DNA of 64,000 nucleotides from positions 1-64,000 of IMG/VR virus record IMGVR_UViG_3300017766_003354. The stretch is one strand, 5' to 3'. Position 1 is the first letter of the stretch. Each line of letters starts with the position of its first letter. Below, piece after piece: positions 104 through 8,923 of the stretch. Below the pieces are notes generated by a model. The model was not told where the DNA came from. It was given only the letters and a program-made list of their open reading frames with translations, and ran no database searches. The stretch is from a virus. The translations under genes were made by a program, and so were the position numbers.

Positions 104-337
104 TTGCACAAACCTCGCATGGAAAGAAAAAATCTCATGAGAAATCCCGCATACTTCGGACTTGACAAAAAGAATTCGCCAGAACTAATTCGCCAATTCC
201 ATCATGAAATCGCTTGGCTGGAAAACAAGTGTTTGGAAGTCGAGGAGCAAATGAAGAAACGGCCATCTAAAGTCAAGCATTTAAATGACCTAAAGCGCCA
301 AATTCAAGAAAAAAAAGATTGGCTGGCCAAGCCATAA
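104..337 (+). CDS. hypothetical coiled-coil protein (start probably at a downstream ATG)
   Basis: ORF track; stop inside repeat copy 1. Confidence 0.6.
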   Translation: MHKPRMERKNLMRNPAYFGLDKKNSPELIRQFHHEIAWLENKCLEVEEQMKKRPSKVKHLNDLKRQIQEKKDWLAKP

Positions 338-419
338 GCCACTGTAAATCAAGCACTTACGAAGTGGCGACCCCGTAGGGGTCCGCGAAACGTAACTCGT
401 TGAAAATCAAAGAGTTGTG
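333..419. repeat. 87-bp palindromic element copy 1 (arm-7-GACCCC GTA GGGGTC-7-arm)
   Basis: CATAAG-N17-CTTACG aagtggc GACCCCgtaGGGGTC cgcgaaa CGTAAC-N17-GTTGTG; flanked by AAGC/GCTT; stop TAA of ORF 104-337 lies in the left arm. Confidence 0.97.
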
Positions 420-480
420 GCTTCTGATAGATAGCTGTTAGGGTGTTCAAAAGAACCCCAAAAATAAATGAAAAAAAAGC

Positions 481-508
481 TTGGAATGGTGGGTGGAAAT
501 GGTAACTT
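481..508 (+). promoter_or_regulatory. sigma70-like promoter after repeat 1
   Basis: TTGGAA-N16-TAACTT. Confidence 0.5.
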
Positions 509-535
509 TCTTTCGTCAGCCAACCCCATACAAAA

Positions 536-805
536 ATGAAAAATCAAATCACCGCAACAATCTGGATTGAAAAAATTGACCCCGAACCCGACAACGTGCT
601 TGGCGAGTTCGAGGTTGACCTTGTGGGAGAATATCACAGGGAAGACAGGGGATCGCGGGGCGATTACGGCGTTCCCATGGAGCCGACCACGCCTGCCTAT
701 GTTGAATTTATTTCCGCCAAAGTTGACGGTGAGGAAATTGAGCTTGACAAATACGACCAAGAACGCGCTGAAATGGCCTTGTGGGAGGCTGTTTGTGAAG
801 ACTGA
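536..805 (+). CDS. hypothetical acidic phage protein
   Basis: ORF after promoter; protein-like composition. Confidence 0.75.
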   Translation: MKNQITATIWIEKIDPEPDNVLGEFEVDLVGEYHREDRGSRGDYGVPMEPTTPAYVEFISAKVDGEEIELDKYDQERAEMALWEAVCED

Positions 806-852
806 AAAATAAACTTGCGGGGGTGAAATTCCCCCGCTAACCTCCGAACATC

Positions 853-1011
853 ATGAAAAACAAATCAGAAAATTCGTTCGCCAACTACTGCGGCCAAACC
901 GTCGAAGTCCTTGACACCTACTCAACCGAACACGGGACTATTTCACTCGTTTCCTATAATGATGGGCGCGAGGAGGAACTGCCAACCGTTCGCCTTGACT
1001 TTCTCGACTAA
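853..1011 (+). CDS. small hypothetical protein (52 aa, not in ORF track)
   Basis: ATG 853, MKNKSENSFANYCGQTVEVLDTYS..., TAA 1009-1011. Confidence 0.55.
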   Translation: MKNKSENSFANYCGQTVEVLDTYSTEHGTISLVSYNDGREEELPTVRLDFLD

Positions 1012-1102
1012 CCCTATTTGACCCCGCACAGAAAAAACTTGCTATTTGATTCGAATTTAAATAAACTTTCGCCAACACCAACAACCAAAAGAAAAAAACA
1101 AA

Positions 1103-1318
1103 ATGTATTGCTCGCCAAACTACAAGTCAAAAAAGGAACTCAAGGAAGCCGTTGCCGCAGGAAAGACCGTCACGGTGTTTCAACCCAACGGTGATCTTTT
1201 CGGAGTGACCGCGCCGACGAACGGCAAGGTTGTCTTGGAGGGTCCGCACTATCCCCAGCCGCATAAATGGTATGCACAAGCGGTCGTTCAAGATGGGAAG
1301 ATTGTCAAGGTGAGTTGA
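1103..1318 (+). CDS. small phage protein (NYKSKKELKEAV...GPHYPQPHKWYA)
   Basis: ORF track; resembles a recurrent uncharacterised phage family. Confidence 0.75.
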   Translation: MYCSPNYKSKKELKEAVAAGKTVTVFQPNGDLFGVTAPTNGKVVLEGPHYPQPHKWYAQAVVQDGKIVKVS

Positions 1319-1423
1319 TAAGATCAAGCCGCTGATAATCCTAGAACCCTGCATCTGAAAGGAAGGTGAGGCTAGGAAATCACTTGAAACAGCGGGAATC
1401 TGCATTAGTGAACGGCAGAACCT

Positions 1424-1510
1424 CATAACTCGCTCATTCTAAGTCACTTACGAATGGGCGACCCCGTAGGGGTCCGTTCTTCGTAACTCGTTGAAAATAA
1501 AGGACTTGTG
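1424..1510. repeat. 87-bp palindromic element copy 2
   Basis: CATAAC-N17-CTTACG N7 GACCCCgtaGGGGTC N7 CGTAAC-N17-CTTGTG. Confidence 0.97.
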
Positions 1511-1547
1511 GCTTTCTAAGAAAAAAGACGAAAAAGAAAAGAATTGA

Positions 1548-1575
1548 TTGACTCTCAAGGGTAATCTGCTAAGTT
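1548..1575 (+). promoter_or_regulatory. sigma70-like promoter after repeat 2
   Basis: TTGACT-N16-TAAGTT with TG upstream of the -10 box. Confidence 0.7.
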
Positions 1576-1622
1576 CTCTTCAGTCGCCCGCAGTTAGGGC
1601 CAAACGCTAACCACTAAAAAAT

Positions 1623-2411
1623 ATGAGTCTGATCATCTGCAAACAAAAAATGAATTTTGAACAATTGCTTGGAATTCAAACCCCGCCCGCTACCGAATCG
1701 CATGTGCCAATTCCACACTCTTCACTTGTCAACTTGACCCGCGAGGCGATCAATCGCGCAGGCATGGAAATCGTTCAAGAGGAGCATGGCGTTGCTCGCG
1801 ATGGAATGAACTATTTTGGCGGCTTTGCCCTTCGAGGCGAGCTTGTCAACGCGGAAGATAAAAGGCTCGTTGTGGGGCTTAGAAATTCCCATCTGAAGCA
1901 ATTCGCCGCTTCAATTTGCATCGGTTCTTCTATGCTGGTTTGCGAGAATTTGCATTTTAGCAGTGATACAAAGCTGGGTCGTCGTCACACAACGAACATC
2001 ATGACCGACTTGCCGCGCATACTTGCTGATGCCGTTGGGCGTTGTGTTTCACAATGGCAAACAATTGGACAGCGTTTTGACGCTTACAAGGAAATTGAAG
2101 TTTCGCGTGATCGTGCCGCTGATTTGCTGATTGAATTAGCAGACGCGAAAGCATTGCCGCCCCGCGAAATTTATAGTGTCATGAATGAATTCCGCAACCC
2201 GCGCCATCCAGAATTTAAAGGTCAAACGCTTTATTCTCTCTTTAATGCCTTTACTGAGGAAATGAAGGGAAGCGACCTTTCGAAGTTGCCATATCGAACA
2301 ATGGCTTGTGAGTCGATTTTTGACAAGTTGGCGCGGTTTGTGCCTGCGGAGCCAATCATTCTTGACGCTTCGGAAGCTGATGAAAGCGAGCCATTGGTTG
2401 TGATTGGTTAA
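1623..2411 (+). CDS. DUF932/DUF945-like phage/plasmid protein
   Basis: PPATESHVPIPH, GLRNSH, LVCENL, RRHT, LYSLFNAFTE motifs. Confidence 0.7.
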   Translation: MSLIICKQKMNFEQLLGIQTPPATESHVPIPHSSLVNLTREAINRAGMEIVQEEHGVARDGMNYFGGFALRGELVNAEDKRLVVGLRNSHLKQFAASICIGSSMLVCENLHFSSDTKLGRRHTTNIMTDLPRILADAVGRCVSQWQTIGQRFDAYKEIEVSRDRAADLLIELADAKALPPREIYSVMNEFRNPRHPEFKGQTLYSLFNAFTEEMKGSDLSKLPYRTMACESIFDKLARFVPAEPIILDASEADESEPLVVIG

Positions 2412-3019
2412 TCTGGCGAATCGGAAACCCCGTCAGAAATGGCGGGGTTTCTTTCGCTAAACTCGACAACCTTTCGGCATAAGTCTAAAAATTCAGAATC
2501 AGACAATGCTCGTTTTGCTAGATTGACATCCTTGTGAACTAGGCGTATGTTTTCTGGCCGATTGCTTCCGCCCTTTGATTTAGCGACGATGTGATCGACA
2601 GAAATTGTTTCAGTCGTTAGCTTAACGCCAGTTAGTGCGCAAATTAACTTTTGCTTGTGCGCTATGTGGAACAAATCAATTGCCGTCAACCATTGATCTT
2701 TTGGAAAGAATCGGTTCGACATCTCAACCAACCTTTTAAACCTTCTTTTCGCCCTGCTTTGCTTTGAATTGGCTTTTAATTTTTCAGGTGAATTCTTATA
2801 TGCTTGCAACGAGCGGATTCGGTTCTTTTCCTTGTTAATTGGGCAAGCAGCGGCAAGTTTTCGTTTTTCTTTATATCTTTCTGGATTTCTCCAATTTTTA
2901 ATTGAAGTTAAACTGACATCAAATTTTTCTAAAGCTTTTGTTGCCCCATGCTCGCTTGCAAAATCTAAAATATCCTGCTTTTCAGCTTGCGTCCATCGTT
3001 TGTGATAATTGTTTGACAT
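2408..3019 (-). CDS. free-standing HNH homing endonuclease with N-terminal HTH
   Basis: CALTG...SVDHIVAKSKGGSNRPENIRLVHKDVNLAK; antisense within a cassette. Confidence 0.9.
   Translation of the reverse strand: MSNNYHKRWTQAEKQDILDFASEHGATKALEKFDVSLTSIKNWRNPERYKEKRKLAAACPINKEKNRIRSLQAYKNSPEKLKANSKQSRAKRRFKRLVEMSNRFFPKDQWLTAIDLFHIAHKQKLICALTGVKLTTETISVDHIVAKSKGGSNRPENIRLVHKDVNLAKRALSDSEFLDLCRKVVEFSERNPAISDGVSDSPD
2424..2451. terminator. intrinsic terminator hairpin
   Basis: GAAACCCCGTC agaaat GGCGGGGTTTC followed by T-rich tract. Confidence 0.65.
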
Positions 3020-3063
3020 GTCAACATAAATTACACTAAAAAATCTTTGTTTACCAAAAAAGT

Positions 3064-3150
3064 CATAAGTCGCTCATTTGCAACCACTTGCGAATTGGCG
3101 ACCCCTTCGGGGTCCGTCTTTTGTAAGTTGTTGGTTTTCAATAACTTGTG
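3064..3150. repeat. 87-bp palindromic element copy 3
   Basis: CATAAG-N17-CTTGCG N7 GACCCCttcGGGGTC N7 TGTAAG-N17-CTTGTG. Confidence 0.97.
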
Positions 3151-3175
3151 GCTTTAAAATAGTTAAACTTTTTTC

Positions 3176-3203
3176 TTGCTTTGTTCTTATAAAAGCTTAG
3201 AGT
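3176..3203 (+). promoter_or_regulatory. leaderless-type promoter after repeat 3
   Basis: TTGCTT-N16-TAGAGT-N6-ATG(3210). Confidence 0.65.
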
Positions 3204-3209
3204 TTCATC

Positions 3210-3533
3210 ATGTTCGCCACCACCGAAGAGATTCAACAATACGCCCGAATGACCTTCAAACAATACGGCTTAGGGGATCATAAGTTGGTTTTTCTTGACA
3301 AGCTGGATACTCCCAACCGTATCGGCCAAGCTAACCCATGGAAAAAAAAGATTGAACTTTCCCCAAAGGCTGCATCTAATTTCGCGCTCTTCCGCTTGGT
3401 GTTTCTTCATGAATTGGCCCATATTCTCCAATTCGCCCGCATGGGCGGGACGTATAAAGTGAATGGCCGAAATAATTTTCATGGGAAAGTTTTTCGCCAA
3501 GTTTGCAAGGAAATCGGAATTCCATGGAAATAA
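3210..3533 (+). CDS. SprT-like zinc metalloprotease
   Basis: FLHELAHI and NNFHGKVFRQVC motifs. Confidence 0.85.
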   Translation: MFATTEEIQQYARMTFKQYGLGDHKLVFLDKLDTPNRIGQANPWKKKIELSPKAASNFALFRLVFLHELAHILQFARMGGTYKVNGRNNFHGKVFRQVCKEIGIPWK

Positions 3534-3570
3534 AAATTGACAAACCATTTAAAAAGACTATCTTCTAGCC

Positions 3571-4083
3571 ATGGCCATTCACCACGAATTAGATCTTTCA
3601 GGCCGCGCCAACTCTCAAGGAGAAAACGCGGAGTCTCTTTTTGTTGAGTTGGCCAAAAAGCATGGCCACAAAGTTACGCCCGCGAATACCCATCAAGAAA
3701 GGGTTGAACATTGGGATTTTCTTCTTACGAAAGAAAAGAATTTGCGCGTTGAAGTTAAGAGCCTCAAAACTTTCGCCGTCTTGCATAATGGAAGAATGAC
3801 AAAAGACTTTCTTTTGATTGAATGGAAAGGCGTTTCTGGCCATGATGGTTGGATATGGGGTAAAGCTGATCTCATTGCATTCGAGCGCCAAGACGGCTTT
3901 TATATTGTCCCTAGAAAGACCCTTCTGGAACTTGGCGAGAAACTTTGTTCTCAAGAATGGGTTGACAGGCGCGAAGATATGCTTTACAAGCAATACGGAA
4001 GAAAGGACAGGGAAGATTGCGTTTCTGCCATTCTTTTGGGGGATATAATTGCAACAAGGAATTTCAGCTTTTGGAAGAAATGA
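3571..4083 (+). CDS. PD-(D/E)XK-type nuclease-like protein; paralog of 45863-46396
   Basis: HWDF...VEVK, LIEWKGVSGHDGW, ADLIAF, YGRKDRED. Confidence 0.7.
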   Translation: MAIHHELDLSGRANSQGENAESLFVELAKKHGHKVTPANTHQERVEHWDFLLTKEKNLRVEVKSLKTFAVLHNGRMTKDFLLIEWKGVSGHDGWIWGKADLIAFERQDGFYIVPRKTLLELGEKLCSQEWVDRREDMLYKQYGRKDREDCVSAILLGDIIATRNFSFWKK

Positions 4084-4274
4084 AAAACTTTACCTTTGGG
4101 GATTACCGTTTGCAGATCACTTGGCCCGAATTTAAAATCAGGAGTGATAAAAAAGGATTTGATTCTCACGTTTCTTTTCAAACGATAATTCGCTTAGGAA
4201 TACATGAAAATTTTTGGGTCTTTGGGGTTTCTGTTTTAGGTTTTGGCATAGGCATTGATTGGGAAAAGTCATAA
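4080..4274 (+). CDS. hypothetical protein
   Basis: ATG overlaps previous stop (ATGA); stop within repeat 4. Confidence 0.6.
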   Translation: MKNFTFGDYRLQITWPEFKIRSDKKGFDSHVSFQTIIRLGIHENFWVFGVSVLGFGIGIDWEKS

Positions 4275-4356
4275 CTCATTCATTCTCAACAAGTCGCGAA
4301 ATCGCGACCCCTTCGGGGTCCACAAAACGTAAGTCTTTGATTTTCAATAACTTATG
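4270..4356. repeat. 87-bp palindromic element copy 4
   Basis: CATAAC-N17-GTCGCG N7 GACCCCttcGGGGTC N7 CGTAAG-N17-CTTATG; contains the stop of the ORF ending at 4274. Confidence 0.97.
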
Positions 4357-4382
4357 GCTTTAATTTTAATTCACATTTTTAA

Positions 4383-4410
4383 TTGACTAAGCGGAAAAAA
4401 TTGGTATCTT
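4383..4410 (+). promoter_or_regulatory. leaderless-type promoter after repeat 4
   Basis: TTGACT-N16-TATCTT-N6-ATG(4417). Confidence 0.75.
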
Positions 4411-4416
4411 GTGGAC

Positions 4417-4542
4417 ATGAAAGCGAAACTCCTTGCCTACAAAAATCACAGAGCCATGCTTGATCCTTTTACTTCTTTTATTCTGGCGTTTTTCGGAACC
4501 GTGGCGCAAGAGATTAAAAAAACTTTGCCGAAATTGCCATGA
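4417..4542 (+). CDS. 41-aa hydrophobic peptide
   Basis: ATG 6 nt after -10 box; MKAKLLAYKNHRAMLDPFTSFILAFFGTVAQEIKKTLPKLP. Confidence 0.5.
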   Translation: MKAKLLAYKNHRAMLDPFTSFILAFFGTVAQEIKKTLPKLP

Positions 4543-4677
4543 AAATCAAAATCATCCTCCCACCAAAAACCCCGCGCATTCGCTTTGCCCCCGCAACTCT
4601 CCGCTTCCCTGACGCTAAGAAAAAAGAAGCAAAAAAAGCTTGCCGCAAGAATAAAAATCAACCAGAATAACCCCGCC

Positions 4678-5241
4678 ATGAAAAAAACATTTGCCAGACC
4701 ACATCCAGAAGGTAGTTTCCTCATTACCATTTCAACCGATGGTTGCGGTGGCCGCCCCTACTTTTCAATTACTGCCGATCTTAAATATAAAGGCGGCGGA
4801 TCATGTTGCGGGTGTATGCATAAAGACGTTTTAAAGGTTGCGCCAGAATTCAAACCTTTTGTTGATCTTCACCTTTCTAATCTTGACGGCATTCCAATGC
4901 ACGCCGAAGAAAATGGTTTCTATTGGCTCGCTAAGGCTGCGGGCATTCCACAAGAATATGGCCCAGATCAGGACGAAGAGACTTGTTTTACTTATCTTTA
5001 CGAACATCTCCGCACGGGATACGATGAAACAAAGTTGATTGTTGAGGCGACGAAAGCGATATACTCTGAAGGAAAGAAAAAGATAGCCATTCCTGAAGAA
5101 GTCTCCCAAAAATGTCGCGAGATGCAAGAAGCGCAAGGCGTTTTTGACGCAAAAGCTTTCTTCAAAAAAACAATTGAAGGAATGAAAGAACGCTGGAAAG
5201 GAGAAGCCGAATCAGCAATTTCTCTTCTCGAAAAGCTGTAA
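4678..5241 (+). CDS. hypothetical phage protein (PYFSITAD...CGCMH...LHLS..DGIPMH)
   Basis: ORF track, start reassigned to ATG 4678; stop within repeat 5. Confidence 0.8.
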   Translation: MKKTFARPHPEGSFLITISTDGCGGRPYFSITADLKYKGGGSCCGCMHKDVLKVAPEFKPFVDLHLSNLDGIPMHAEENGFYWLAKAAGIPQEYGPDQDEETCFTYLYEHLRTGYDETKLIVEATKAIYSEGKKKIAIPEEVSQKCREMQEAQGVFDAKAFFKKTIEGMKERWKGEAESAISLLEKL

Positions 5242-5323
5242 GTCACTAATACTCAAGGGGTCGCAAATGGGCGACCCCTTCGGGGTCCGCTTTTCGTAAG
5301 TCGTTGATAATGTGTGACTTATG
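5237..5323. repeat. 87-bp palindromic element copy 5
   Basis: TGTAAG-N17-GTCGCA N7 GACCCCttcGGGGTC N7 CGTAAG-N17-CTTATG; contains the stop of the ORF ending at 5241. Confidence 0.97.
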
Positions 5324-5349
5324 GCTTTCAAAAATAATAAAGAAAGTGC

Positions 5350-5377
5350 TTGCGCGGCTCTGAAAAAATGCTAGTTT
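5350..5377 (+). promoter_or_regulatory. promoter after repeat 5
   Basis: TTGCGC-N16-TAGTTT with extended TG. Confidence 0.6.
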
Positions 5378-5386
5378 GTCCCTGCC

Positions 5387-5683
5387 ATGCAAGACGAATA
5401 TATCGACACCAGAAAACCCCTTCACGCAAAAGCCTATTTGGCCGCAGCTTCCCATATTCTAAGCGGTTGGCCGCAAGAATGGAGTGCGGGAACGCTTGAA
5501 ATGGCTCTATTGACTGGCGACGAAGATATTCTCGCCAAAAAAGAAATGAAAGAAAAAATTCGCCTTTGGAATCCTATTAAGGCAATCTCCGCAAGTGATG
5601 ACACCGACCCCTATTTCAAGAGCGATGAAATGATTTGCGATTTGGCGGAAAGTTTTATTGACTTCTTGGAAGAAAACAAGTAA
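5387..5683 (+). CDS. hypothetical protein
   Basis: ORF directly after promoter. Confidence 0.75.
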   Translation: MQDEYIDTRKPLHAKAYLAAASHILSGWPQEWSAGTLEMALLTGDEDILAKKEMKEKIRLWNPIKAISASDDTDPYFKSDEMICDLAESFIDFLEENK

Positions 5684-5937
5684 GTTCTCTTCATGCGAGG
5701 GAAGGAACGCCCTCACAGAAAATGCCGATGGTGATGCCCTAGCGATAACCATGGAATACGGCGAGGTAAAAATCCTTAATCGGGGACAAATTTCAAAACA
5801 AAATAACCATGAAACACAATCTAATCACCGCCCTAATCCTTACCCCATTCATTTTTTCAATCTTTTTTCTTGCCATTAGAACAATCTGCTGCTACCTTCT
5901 CCCACGTAAGACAAACCAAACCAACACCGAAAACAAA

Positions 5938-6216
5938 ATGAAAAACACTACTGAACTCCGCAAGCTTATCCAATCCACAAACGGCAAATTCTTTTCTGTC
6001 GTCTTTCGCAAGAAGAACGGCGATATTCGTCGCGCCAATGGAAAAGACAAATATCTTCGGCTTCTTGCTGATTCTTCCAGTCCACGCGCTGGATTCAATG
6101 CTCTCGAAGGAACCGACCTTACTTCTTTTGTGGACCGCAATAAGGAGGGCTGGATTTCCGCAAGCGATGAACGGCTCGTCTCTTTCAAGTGTGGGGCAAT
6201 TGAAAAGACTTTCTAA
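5938..6216 (+). CDS. WYL/SH3-barrel-like small phage protein
   Basis: GKFFSVVFRKKNGDIRRANG motif; start reassigned to ATG 5938. Confidence 0.6.
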   Translation: MKNTTELRKLIQSTNGKFFSVVFRKKNGDIRRANGKDKYLRLLADSSSPRAGFNALEGTDLTSFVDRNKEGWISASDERLVSFKCGAIEKTF

Positions 6217-6250
6217 GGGTGGACATTGGTGAATAGAGCTTAAATGCTCG

Positions 6251-6290
6251 ATCCCTAACGGCTAGTGGTGGCCGTTAGGGATTTTCTTTT
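6251..6290 (+). terminator. intrinsic terminator abutting repeat 6
   Basis: ATCCCTAACGGCTA gtgg TGGCCGTTAGGGAT TTTCTTTT. Confidence 0.85.
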
Positions 6291-6292
6291 AT

Positions 6293-6379
6293 CATAAGTT
6301 CTTCATTTTAAAGGGCTTACGTTTGGCCGACCCCGTAGGGGTCCGTGTTTCGTAAGTCGTTCATTCTTAGTCACTTATG
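6293..6379. repeat. 87-bp palindromic element copy 6
   Basis: CATAAG-N17-CTTACG N7 GACCCCgtaGGGGTC N7 CGTAAG-N17-CTTATG; immediately preceded by an intrinsic terminator. Confidence 0.97.
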
Positions 6380-6405
6380 GCTTTTGAATTTTAATTGTTT
6401 TTCCG

Positions 6406-6433
6406 TTGACATGTCGGGCCGAAATGTTATCTT
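6406..6433 (+). promoter_or_regulatory. promoter after repeat 6
   Basis: TTGACA-N16-TATCTT with extended TG. Confidence 0.75.
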
Positions 6434-6463
6434 TTCGCCAGTTCGAAACACCAACACCAACAA

Positions 6464-6781
6464 ATGAAAATCACTAAAACACTAAATCGCCACTCTGTTT
6501 TCAGTTCATTCTTTCGCATCTTTGAAAGCGATCTTTCAATCTGTCAAGAATTCACAGAAAAACTGTCTGGAGAGAAGATTTCAAAGCAGTCGATCGCCCG
6601 CTTTGATTTGAATACAAAAAACCCAAAAGAAAAGGGATTTAAAAAAGTCACAAGAATTTCAACTTATGAAGTGGAACTTGGCGGAACAGAATTTTCTACT
6701 TTAAGCAAGCATAATCGACTATTTGAAGACTTCGGAATTAAAATTGGCGATAGCTTTTGGATGAAAGTTGAATTGGCCTGA
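6464..6781 (+). CDS. hypothetical protein
   Basis: ORF track. Confidence 0.7.
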   Translation: MKITKTLNRHSVFSSFFRIFESDLSICQEFTEKLSGEKISKQSIARFDLNTKNPKEKGFKKVTRISTYEVELGGTEFSTLSKHNRLFEDFGIKIGDSFWMKVELA

Positions 6782-6824
6782 ATTTAAATTGACAACCCCA
6801 TTTAAAAATCTTACTCTCTTGCCG

Positions 6825-7523
6825 ATGAAACTTCTTACCACAGCGAATACAAAAATCAAAAAGGGCGAAAAGCTTGGCTTCATGACTTTTGGAATCCATC
6901 TTGCGCCCGCTAAATTGTCTGGATTCAATACTTGCCCTAGTGCCTCGGAAGGGTGCGCGGCAGCGTGCTTGAACACGGCGGGCATGGGCGTTTATTCCAC
7001 CGTCCAATCCGCCCGCATTGCAAAAACCTTGCTCTTCTTTAAAGAGCGGGATTCTTTCATGTCGCAACTTGTGAAGGAAATCACTGCCGCAATAAAAAAA
7101 GCAGTGAAAAATGAAATGATTCCTTGCTTTCGTCTTAACCTTACTTCCGACCTTGCGTGGGAAAAAATCCGCCATAACGGCCAAACAATTTTTGAACTTT
7201 TCCCTGATGTTCAATTTTACGATTATACGAAAGTATATTCTCGCATGGCTTCTTTTCTGGCGGGCGAACTGCCGAAAAATTACCATTTGACCTTTTCCCG
7301 TGCGGAGTCCAATGAACTCGCGACAAGCGCCATCCTCGCGAGCGGGGGAAATGTTGCGGCGGTTTTTCGCGGTGCTTTGCCCGCGTCATGGAGCGGCAAG
7401 GCTGTAGTGTCTGGCGACGAATCAGACTTGCGTTTTAAAGACCCGCAAGGTGTGATTGTTGGGCTTGTGGAAAAGGGTAAAGCCAAAAAAGACACAAGCG
7501 GCTTCGTTCTGGAACCTCAATAA
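6825..7523 (+). CDS. GP88-family (radical-SAM-like Fe-S) phage protein
   Basis: CPSASEGCAAACLNTAGMG, RLNLTSDLAWE, QFYDYTK, YHLTFSR, GDESDLRF; leaderless promoter TTGACA-N17-TACTCT. Confidence 0.8.
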   Translation: MKLLTTANTKIKKGEKLGFMTFGIHLAPAKLSGFNTCPSASEGCAAACLNTAGMGVYSTVQSARIAKTLLFFKERDSFMSQLVKEITAAIKKAVKNEMIPCFRLNLTSDLAWEKIRHNGQTIFELFPDVQFYDYTKVYSRMASFLAGELPKNYHLTFSRAESNELATSAILASGGNVAAVFRGALPASWSGKAVVSGDESDLRFKDPQGVIVGLVEKGKAKKDTSGFVLEPQ

Positions 7524-7573
7524 TTAACCCATGGAAATAATCTTGGTAATTTTAATAATTGCGGGGTTTTTGA

Positions 7574-7777
7574 TTGGATACTTTGGAAATGAATAAAATT
7601 CGCACAATCTTAGAATCCCCGTTCGGTCAATTCCTTGTTGATGGCATTCACGAAAACGGCAAAGTCCAATCCCTTGCTGTTTATCCGATCATCTCTGGAA
7701 TAGTTGGCGAGTCGATAAGCACAGACGAAAACAACTGGCAAGAACTAATTGAAAAACTTGAAAATTTACTGAAATGA
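7574..7777 (+). CDS. hypothetical protein
   Basis: ORF track. Confidence 0.6.
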   Translation: MDTLEMNKIRTILESPFGQFLVDGIHENGKVQSLAVYPIISGIVGESISTDENNWQELIEKLENLLK

Positions 7778-7971
7778 AAAAAGGCCAATCAATTACCGCA
7801 AAAAATGGAAAACTCCGCATTAAATATGATCCTGAATGGAGTCCTTCAATGCCGTTTTGCACCTATGAGAACGGGACGGCTGGCCGTTCTTTTGGGAGTC
7901 TGACCGCCGCAACGAATTACTTTTCAAATAAAAATGGACAAGTAAATCATCGCTGGTCAGACTTTAAATAA
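7774..7971 (+). CDS. hypothetical protein
   Basis: ATGA overlap; stop abuts repeat 7. Confidence 0.65.
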   Translation: MKKGQSITAKNGKLRIKYDPEWSPSMPFCTYENGTAGRSFGSLTAATNYFSNKNGQVNHRWSDFK

Positions 7972-7975
7972 AAGC

Positions 7976-8062
7976 CATAACTCACTCAAAACCAAGGAGT
8001 CGCGAATACGCGACCCCTTCGGGGTCGGCCTTGCGTAAGTGCTTAAAAATGAGAGACTTGTG
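7976..8062. repeat. 87-bp palindromic element copy 7
   Basis: CATAAC-N17-GTCGCG N7 GACCCCttcGGGGTC N7 CGTAAG-N17-CTTGTG; upstream ORF stops at 7971. Confidence 0.97.
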
Positions 8063-8088
8063 GCTTTTGATTTTTAATTAAAAATAGC

Positions 8089-8116
8089 TTGCGGGTTTGG
8101 CTCTTTGTGATAACTT
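8089..8116 (+). promoter_or_regulatory. leaderless-type promoter after repeat 7
   Basis: TTGCGG-N16-TAACTT-N6-ATG(8123). Confidence 0.7.
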
Positions 8117-8122
8117 ACTCGC

Positions 8123-8335
8123 ATGTCCGACACCGCCACCGTCTTAGATACCCCAGAAAAAATCCAAATGTATAGACTTCTTGCTATTCGCTCAGGCTTG
8201 AAGCTCGAATTGCTTGGCATGCGCCACTCGCGCAATGCAATCTTTAATGCAGCCAAACAAATCACAGGCAAGAAAACAAGAATTGCCTGTTTGGCCATGA
8301 TTGAAGAAAGAATCGAAAAACTGCAAAACTCATGA
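8123..8335 (+). CDS. hypothetical protein
   Basis: ORF after promoter. Confidence 0.7.
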   Translation: MSDTATVLDTPEKIQMYRLLAIRSGLKLELLGMRHSRNAIFNAAKQITGKKTRIACLAMIEERIEKLQNS

Positions 8336-8832
8336 ATCCAGCATCCGCAAAAACTTCAGTCAACCAAGTTCCCTTTCTTCACAAGTGGATCGCCCGCTCG
8401 TATCAAAGCCGAGGGAAACACGTTTTTGATTTCGGGGCAGGGAAAGAAGGAAAGGTCGATGAATTCATGAAACAAAAGGAGTTTGGGTATTGGCCTTATG
8501 ATCCTTTCAATCGCTCGCCACAAACAAATAATCTTTCTCTTGCTGCTTTGCCAGCTTGTGATTTTGTCCTTTGTTCAAATGTCTTGAATGTTTTGGAAGA
8601 CCAATATCTTGAAACGGTGATTGATGAGCTTTCCGCTTTTGCTTTTGCGACCAAAGCAAGGGTTTGCTATGTGACAGTTTACCACAAATCCAGCCTCCCG
8701 AAAAACCGCCAAGTTGGCGATCACTTCCAGCGAAATGAGCCGCTTGATTGGTATAAAGAAAAGCTGGAAAAGAAGTTTGATGTGGTAATTAAGAATGGCA
8801 AGGTTTTGATTTGTTTACTTGCCAAGAGCTAA
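8332..8832 (+). CDS. class I SAM-dependent methyltransferase-like protein
   Basis: VFDFGAGKEG (motif I), YDPFN, DFVLCSNVLNV. Confidence 0.75.
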   Translation: MNPASAKTSVNQVPFLHKWIARSYQSRGKHVFDFGAGKEGKVDEFMKQKEFGYWPYDPFNRSPQTNNLSLAALPACDFVLCSNVLNVLEDQYLETVIDELSAFAFATKARVCYVTVYHKSSLPKNRQVGDHFQRNEPLDWYKEKLEKKFDVVIKNGKVLICLLAKS

Positions 8833-8836
8833 AAGC

Positions 8837-8923
8837 CATAACTCGCTCGGGATCAGCGACTTACGAATCGCTGACCCCGTAGGGGTCGCCCAAACGTAAC
8901 CCCTTGATTCTCAACAACTTACA
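8837..8923. repeat. 87-bp palindromic element copy 8 (last in window)
   Basis: CATAAC-N17-CTTACG N7 GACCCCgtaGGGGTC N7 CGTAAC-N17-CTTACA; upstream ORF stops at 8832. Confidence 0.97.

Follow-up and report, generated by a model that had tools for sequence, protein, structure and literature searches.

The stretch of DNA analysed here (the window) comprises the first 64 kb of the IMG/VR virus record IMGVR_UViG_3300017766_003354, which has a total length of 146,905 bp. It opens with an array of small gene cassettes separated by copies of a nested palindrome of 87-96 nt, which we term the boundary element. A 123-bp terminal overlap of the record indicates a circular assembly of 146.8 kb, a complete phage genome of ~147 kb. 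The phage encodes rIIA/rIIB-like proteins, an RNA ligase, RtcB, a DNA polymerase, a Lon-like protease, a ribonucleotide reductase and a large terminase, in addition to 18 tRNAs, and its largest open reading frame (ORF) codes for a tape-measure protein of 2,051 aa. Five large ORFs beside the terminase and tape-measure genes have no match among PHROG or Pfam families, and a search of the phage collection found no close cultured relative. Despite its rIIA/rIIB-like genes, the carrier phage is not a T4-type myovirus. All genes of the array lie on the plus strand, with the sole exception of an HNH endonuclease gene (Table 1).

The motif GACCCC-NNN-GGGGTC at the center of the element matches eight times in the window, compared to 0.06 matches expected by chance, and none of 100 shuffled sequences attained eight. 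The eight 121-nt stretches around these cores align without a gap, with the arms where the sequence-only reading of this DNA had placed them, which bears out its claim of eight copies free of insertions and deletions (indels). A profile built from 49 copies and run over the whole genome, a scan proposed along with that reading, revealed precisely nine places in a single array and nothing more up to E=1. The ninth copy has its core at genome position 146202, ~700 nt before base 1 on the circle; the array, which had been supposed to continue upstream of base 1, does so by exactly one copy. In three cases the stop codon of the upstream gene is a TAA within the left arm, and in two others it sits 4 nt before the arm, as the same reading had described.

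The element is also present in 35 loci from ~20 related uncultured phage contigs, as revealed by a viral contig scan; a single fetched locus of a relative contained as many as 11 copies. One further, more distant relative (L164) came from a metagenome scan. Across 86 unique copies, the element is built from four related arms of 13 nt (CRTAAGTYGTTGA and its complement). Together the arms make up two 29-nt palindromes, which are set at a fixed distance around a central hairpin of 15 nt, GACCCC-(GWA/TWC)-GGGGTC. Conservation is highest in the central stem and in the inner arms ACTTAC/GTAAGT. The 12-nt core stem is identical in 85 of the 86 copies, the odd one differing by a single G-for-A change, and it is shared by phages whose core proteins are only 40-50% identical. 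All 75 CTTAC...GTAAG pairs in the family loci flank the standard center, and a search of other phage families for the same arms with a different center gave only chance single matches among the matches listed. The 17-nt spacers of the sequence-only reading, whose bases were thought to drift freely, turned out to be the distal halves of the 13-bp palindrome arms, with the pattern TCGTTGA-NNN-TCAACGA in the relatives; in the window the right-hand one keeps this pattern and the left distal part has decayed. Relative to transcription, the loop reads TTC in 27 copies, TAC in 21, GTA in 20 and GAA in 17, with one ATC/GAT loop in a doubtful outlying copy. As the loop is present in both orientations, it flips, and only the duplex G-W-A/T-W-C is tolerated. 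Where the outer arms read CATAAG, the inner ones read CGTAAG, and this difference is mirrored about the element center, rather than strand-specific.

Downstream of the palindrome, promoter-like hexamers stand in a fixed register. In five of the eight gene-followed copies, a -35-like hexamer begins 76-77 nt past the core start and is followed, across a 16-nt spacer, by a -10 hexamer of the form TAnnnT; these five sites lie behind an AT-rich tract of 26 nt (for example GCTTTTGATTTTTAATTAAAAATAG) that fills the distance between the right arm and the -35. A consensus scan also picked two of the five fixed-register sites. With a simple promoter score, the sites could not be separated from background; the promoter calls draw on their fixed register and hexamer pattern instead. 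An ATG lies 6-9 nt past the -10, without a Shine-Dalgarno sequence, in four to five cassettes (3198-3212, 4405-4419, 5372-5389 and 8111-8125), which suggests that the first-gene messages of these cassettes are leaderless or nearly so. Leaderless messages may also give a hint at the host. In some relatives the -35 (TTGTCAAGAAAAA) directly abuts the right arm. In addition, a motif ACGACTTGTCAAGAAAAA with a 9-bp palindrome CTTGTCAAG around the -35 is common to the first module of this genome (146,318-146,335) and to distant relatives, in which it directly abuts the element (for example L014:6180-6195).

The array of the relatives occupies the same genome position, beside a block of terminase and neighboring genes with 40-50% protein identity. 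Since no close relative of this genome was available, the cassettes were compared within the family, among relatives at 40-70% protein identity. The comparison bore out the proposal that the elements bound the cassettes: among the relatives, cassettes go missing, are exchanged for others or change their order, and the junctions fall within the element or next to it. Compared to L020, L033 lacks a 1,083-bp segment spanning one element, and the two ends of this segment lie at nearly equivalent offsets of neighboring modules that are 1,122 bp apart. The same two loci also differ by one replacement bounded at +48/-100 of element centers, by additional tandem elements and by further missing cassettes. 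In a cassette replacement between L038 and L036, homology stops at +22 and restarts at -28, both inside elements, and the loop differs across the junction. As a pair, L020 and L019 form a mosaic, in which the elements lie within 100%-identical blocks that separate diverged gene patches. The gene order is o853, DUF932, SprT, o5387 and GP88 in this genome, versus o853-like, SprT, DUF932 and GP88 with o5387-like in L020. The GP88 (70-74%) and DUF932 (58-61%) proteins are better conserved than the terminase (~50%). Two or three complete elements may also stand in tandem at an exact spacing of 96 bp, with neither gene nor promoter between them (L033:2817-3023, L015:7385-7495 and L040:10273-10383); these tandem elements are often found at the convergent end of the array. 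In a de-duplicated and more permissive count, 27 of 115 homology-block ends fall within 60 nt of element centers, compared to 15.4 +/- 3.6 expected (P ~0.002), with a deficit just upstream of the element (5 versus 17.1).

Four cores in the window were called terminator-like by a scan, and in eight of the nine copies a basal stem AAAGCCATAA/TTRTGGCTTT leads up to a terminal GGCTT(T). The last copy, element 9, has neither GGCTTT nor a downstream promoter, and a separate 15-bp terminator-like hairpin lies at 6250-6283, just upstream of element 7. In group A, one subgroup of the relatives with 30 unique copies, a (G/A)TTT(T/C)G sequence comes after the core, on the coding-strand side wherever the gene direction is clear, the orientation of this group being partly set by the T-run itself. 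At one homologous intergenic site, the place of the element and promoter of L036 is taken in L038 by a plain GGGGGC-TTTC-GCCCCC hairpin, which argues that the element does the job of a terminator.

The window copies have folding energies of -24 to -43 kcal/mol (z -2.7 to -6.2), alike on both strands, and fold best as a single interrupted hairpin of ~100 nt composed of basal, middle and apical stems. RNAalifold on the nine copies of this genome also gave the long hairpin, with 0 compensatory pairs. Over 49 oriented copies, a three-hairpin form and the long-hairpin form each reach ~86% paired cells, compared to 85-86% in shuffled alignments, and the three-hairpin form is only marginally above its shuffles. 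As shuffling barely changes the pairing (86.2% of cells paired versus 85.0%), the pairing stems from the conserved arms, and covariation is minimal; the two modeled forms fit alike, leaving the choice between three hairpins and one long hairpin undecided. None of the elements matched Rfam 15 at the gathering threshold or at E<=1, and a known RNA family was rejected. Spacer pairs of this genome and of the L014/L026/L028 subgroup comprise 22 G.U versus 1 A.C, and the outer hairpins of group A, minus two basal pairs, comprise 77 G.U versus 11 A.C on the sense strand. The right hairpin is G.U-rich, and the left hairpin has the opposite bias, A.C over G.U. Given this reversal and the partly T-run-defined orientation of group A, the sense-strand G.U excess does not conclusively demonstrate an RNA structure. 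Three of the four copies with a TTC loop (4291-4320, 5255-5287 and 7994-8026) have a left inner arm of (GG)GGTCGC(G/A) in place of CTTACG, which can pair with GCGACCCC to form a hairpin that excludes the central one, resembling an anti-terminator/terminator arrangement. In element 6, the upstream GGGGTCGC is able to pair with GCGACCCC as an alternative hairpin, which is adopted by the minimum-energy fold of this copy (core 5273).

Taken together, we consider it probable that the boundary element is a terminator/insulator and early-promoter module of the promoter-early stem-loop (PeSL) type, which doubles as portable homology for recombination. The PeSLs of T4-type phages consist of a stem-loop terminator, an AT-rich tract and a sigma-70-like promoter, and are clustered in plastic regions and found at indels; homologous recombination and mini-circles were proposed as their mechanism, and the question of a dedicated factor was left open by the authors (Arbiol et al. 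2010, PMC2839356; Comeau et al. 2014, PMC4122927). A resemblance to PeSLs was already pointed out in the sequence-only reading, and it is an apt one. The two systems share the order of parts, in which a stem-loop between genes, its stem made of C/G runs, precedes an AT-rich tract and then a sigma-70-like early promoter. In either case, many copies populate a region of small accessory genes, and they coincide with places where related phages differ by cassette indels, replacements or displacements; no dedicated recombinase is known for either. In the array, the stem-loop lies upstream of the promoter in the core+76/77 register, with the AT-rich tract between stem-loop and -35, and the junctions of indels and replacements in the relatives fall at the elements. 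However, compared to the simple G(n)-loop-C(n) hairpin of PeSLs, the element is a rigid nested palindrome, and its sequence is conserved across a whole phage family. Moreover, several of its first genes are apparently leaderless, whereas PeSL genes carry a Shine-Dalgarno site. The element behaves as a PeSL would, in a phage family that, judged by its structural proteins, falls outside the T4 type.

We propose that each module runs from the nested palindrome through the AT-rich tract and the sigma-70-like early promoter to a first gene that is often leaderless. The transcript of the upstream cassette would enter the palindrome, where the RNA would fold as the long interrupted hairpin or as three hairpins. 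The folded RNA would then end or attenuate transcription and shield the 3' end, and every cassette would be expressed separately. Because a module of ~90-250 bp recurs nine times in this genome, and up to the 11 times mentioned above in a relative, the general phage recombination machinery could cross over between its copies. Such crossovers would delete, insert, replace or reorder whole cassettes with their regulation intact, making a dedicated recombinase unneeded. In their pattern, the breakpoints are consistent with ordinary homologous recombination between copies of a repeated module, which has been described for PeSLs (PMC2839356, PMC4122927). To date, modular shuffling of the PeSL type is on record only for T4-type phages and their simple hairpins. 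The same logic would here operate in an unrelated uncultured phage family, with promoter, gene and terminator as an insulated unit and a portable, conserved linker between the units. This linker is far more elaborate than the PeSL hairpin and has an invariant sequence.

Several points weigh against this interpretation. Termination at the elements is only predicted, covariation is nearly absent as described above, and about half of the window copies lack a T-run immediately downstream of the core. The core stem (85/86) and the GWA/TWC loop are under more constraint than a terminator would need, and the presence of the loop in both orientations relative to transcription implies that no RNA loop identity is selected. 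In addition, the collections hold no close relative of this genome, and shuffling was seen only in the arrays of the relatives. A first, redundant and stricter breakpoint count gave no enrichment at the element (17/124 versus 17.3 expected), unlike the de-duplicated count. Compared to intrinsic bidirectional terminators, the element has a similar GC-rich hairpin and T-run, here as an A-run/T-run pair AAAAGCC...GGCTTTT around the basal stem, and its last copy lies between convergent genes. However, it is longer and more complex, with an invariant core, and the T-run by the core is missing from the copies just mentioned.

The element might instead be mainly a DNA site for a symmetric sequence-specific protein of phage or host, an alternative that we regard as possible but rather unlikely. 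A dimer or tetramer would be seated on the four GTAAGT-type half-sites together with the GACCCC/GGGGTC dyad and would turn the early promoters on or off in concert; the palindrome would then reflect the symmetry of the protein, not folding. This would agree with a core and inner arms that hardly vary among deeply diverged phages, in contrast to the lineage-specific spacers between them, with a pairing that is accounted for by column conservation rather than covariation, and with the rigid, indel-free geometry in fixed register with the promoter. The mirror symmetry of the arm difference, the free orientation of the loop and the lack of mutual compensation among the 'S' positions point in the same direction. 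However, the analysis turned up no candidate protein for the site, lineages differ in the distance to the -35 (+53 versus +77), and promoterless elements exist, namely the last copy here and the tandem 96-bp copies. The T-run polarity of group A and the excess of G.U over A.C in the spacers (22 versus 1) suggest a strand-specific role, likely in RNA, and the replacement of the element by a plain terminator hairpin in L038 also speaks against a pure protein site. Still, the invariance of the core across deeply diverged phages, beyond what a terminator needs, leaves room for a sequence-specific factor, and suggests one as a candidate only; it likewise favors, as a possibility, the protein-anchor role raised in the sequence-only reading. 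In a more specific form, which we hold to be quite unlikely, the 47-bp core (ACTTAC-N8-GACCCC-GWA-GGGGTC-N8-GTAAGT) would be the target of a putative family-conserved factor that actively promotes cassette exchange or loop inversion, for instance a structure- and sequence-specific nuclease or a junction-resolving enzyme acting on an extruded hairpin or cruciform. If so, the array would be a true phage "cassette platform" instead of a set of passive homologous linkers. The invariant 47-bp core is in any case a usable probe for the question of a dedicated factor.

Other functions fit the array less well. In the early region of phage T7, RNase III-type cutting takes place at intergenic sites. By analogy, the element could be an RNA processing or stability signal, with long precursors cut by an RNase III-type enzyme at the interrupted hairpin to leave a protective 3' hairpin. 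The best fold of the window copies, the G.U excess in the outer hairpins of group A and the apparent constraint on the right half past the T-run would be in line with this. However, the opposite bias of the left hairpin, the lack of covariation and the absence of an Rfam match speak against it, and as each cassette has its own promoter, processing is not needed for separating the messages; we therefore rate a processing signal as distinctly improbable. A hairpin promoter of the N4 virion RNA polymerase would likewise have a 5-7-bp stem and a 3-nt loop in an early region, and a GNA-type loop on one strand is common to these promoters and the element. Here, by contrast, the promoters are sigma-70-like and the loop occurs in both orientations. 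This identity was rejected, as the phage has no N4-like virion RNA polymerase and no giant polymerase-like ORF, its largest ORF being the tape-measure gene. A dedicated recombination or mobility system, in which the element would be an integron attC-like site, a REP/RAYT-like sequence or a self-inserting MITE-like palindrome, is highly improbable. The presence or absence of element and promoter between the same two genes in L036 and L038, the tandem empty copies and some junctions inside the element center might suggest mobility, but the L036/L038 difference is a replacement without target-site duplication, and the copies are restricted to one array per genome. Moreover, a search of the complete genome found no tyrosine recombinase (PF00589), no serine recombinase or resolvase, and no Y1/HUH transposase (PF01797), the enzymes that the sequence-only reading had suggested looking for, and the element has 0 matches among 185,579 prokaryote species genomes. 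On these results, a REP/BIME sequence with its RAYT was rejected, as was a transposon. Although integron attC sites are also imperfect palindromes at cassette boundaries, the array has no IntI-type integrase and no RYYYAAC/GTTRRRY ends, the latter mismatch having been recognized from the start; the element is of fixed length, and each cassette carries its own promoter, unlike integron cassettes. The proposal of an undescribed, integron-like cassette system is not supported. A CRISPR array was rejected as well, since a defining feature is lacking.

Table 1. Boundary elements, promoter-like sites and cassette genes of the array (window coordinates)
Feature	Position	Strand	Details
Boundary element 2 of 9	333..419	.	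core hairpin 369-383, loop GTA; upstream ORF stop TAA 335-337 in left arm
Candidate promoter, weak	481..508	+	TTGGAA-16-TAACTT, core+112
Boundary element 3	1424..1510	.	core 1460-1474, loop GTA; followed by CGTTCTT
Candidate promoter	1548..1575	+	TTGACT-16-TAAGTT, core+88
DUF932 family cassette gene	1623..2411	+	58-61% identical to array copies in relatives, where the neighbors differ
HNH endonuclease gene	2408..3019	-	antisense within cassette 2, adjoins DUF932 gene
Boundary element 4	3064..3150	.	core 3100-3114, loop TTC; followed by CGTCTTTT; upstream gene is the minus-strand HNH gene
Candidate promoter	3176..3203	+	TTGCTT-16-TAGAGT, core+76; ATG 6 nt past -10
SprT-like cassette gene	3210..3533	+	order relative to DUF932 swapped compared to L020
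Boundary element 5	4270..4356	.	core 4306-4320, loop TTC; stop TAA 4272-4274 in left arm
Promoter-like site	4383..4410	+	TTGACT-16-TATCTT, core+77; ATG 6 nt past -10; also in consensus scan
Boundary element 6	5237..5323	.	core 5273-5287, loop TTC; stop TAA 5239-5241 in left arm
Candidate promoter	5350..5377	+	TTGCGC-16-TAGTTT, core+77; ATG 9 nt past -10
Boundary element 7	6293..6379	.	core 6329-6343, loop GTA
Promoter-like site	6406..6433	+	TTGACA-16-TATCTT, core+77; also in consensus scan
GP88 family (PF17338) cassette gene	6825..7523	+	E 4e-50; 70-74% identity in 16 related loci
Boundary element 8	7976..8062	.	core 8012-8026, loop TTC; upstream stop 7969-7971, 4 nt before arm
Candidate promoter	8089..8116	+	TTGCGG-16-TAACTT, core+77; ATG 6 nt past -10
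Last cassette gene	8332..8832	+	weak methyltransferase-like match
Boundary element 9, last	8837..8923	.	core 8873-8887, loop GTA; upstream stop 8830-8832, 4 nt before arm; convergent junction with minus-strand genes

The HNH endonuclease gene may be a homing-type insertion, and as such a second source of local rearrangement. The GP88-family protein, the best-conserved protein of the array, contains a cysteine cluster and has a paralogue in some relatives. A WYL_2-like gene at 5938-6216 is, like the DUF932 and GP88 genes, among the conserved genes of the array. Directly upstream of the array, the genome region 138,300-146,050 (L048:1372-9126) contains ~20 small plus-strand ORFs, which mostly overlap and are free of the element. 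At its end, immediately ahead of element 1, lies a strong hairpin, GCCCCGCAGG...CCTGCGGGGC, with TTCTTTT behind it. The block has an operon-style layout, compared to the cassette-style array.

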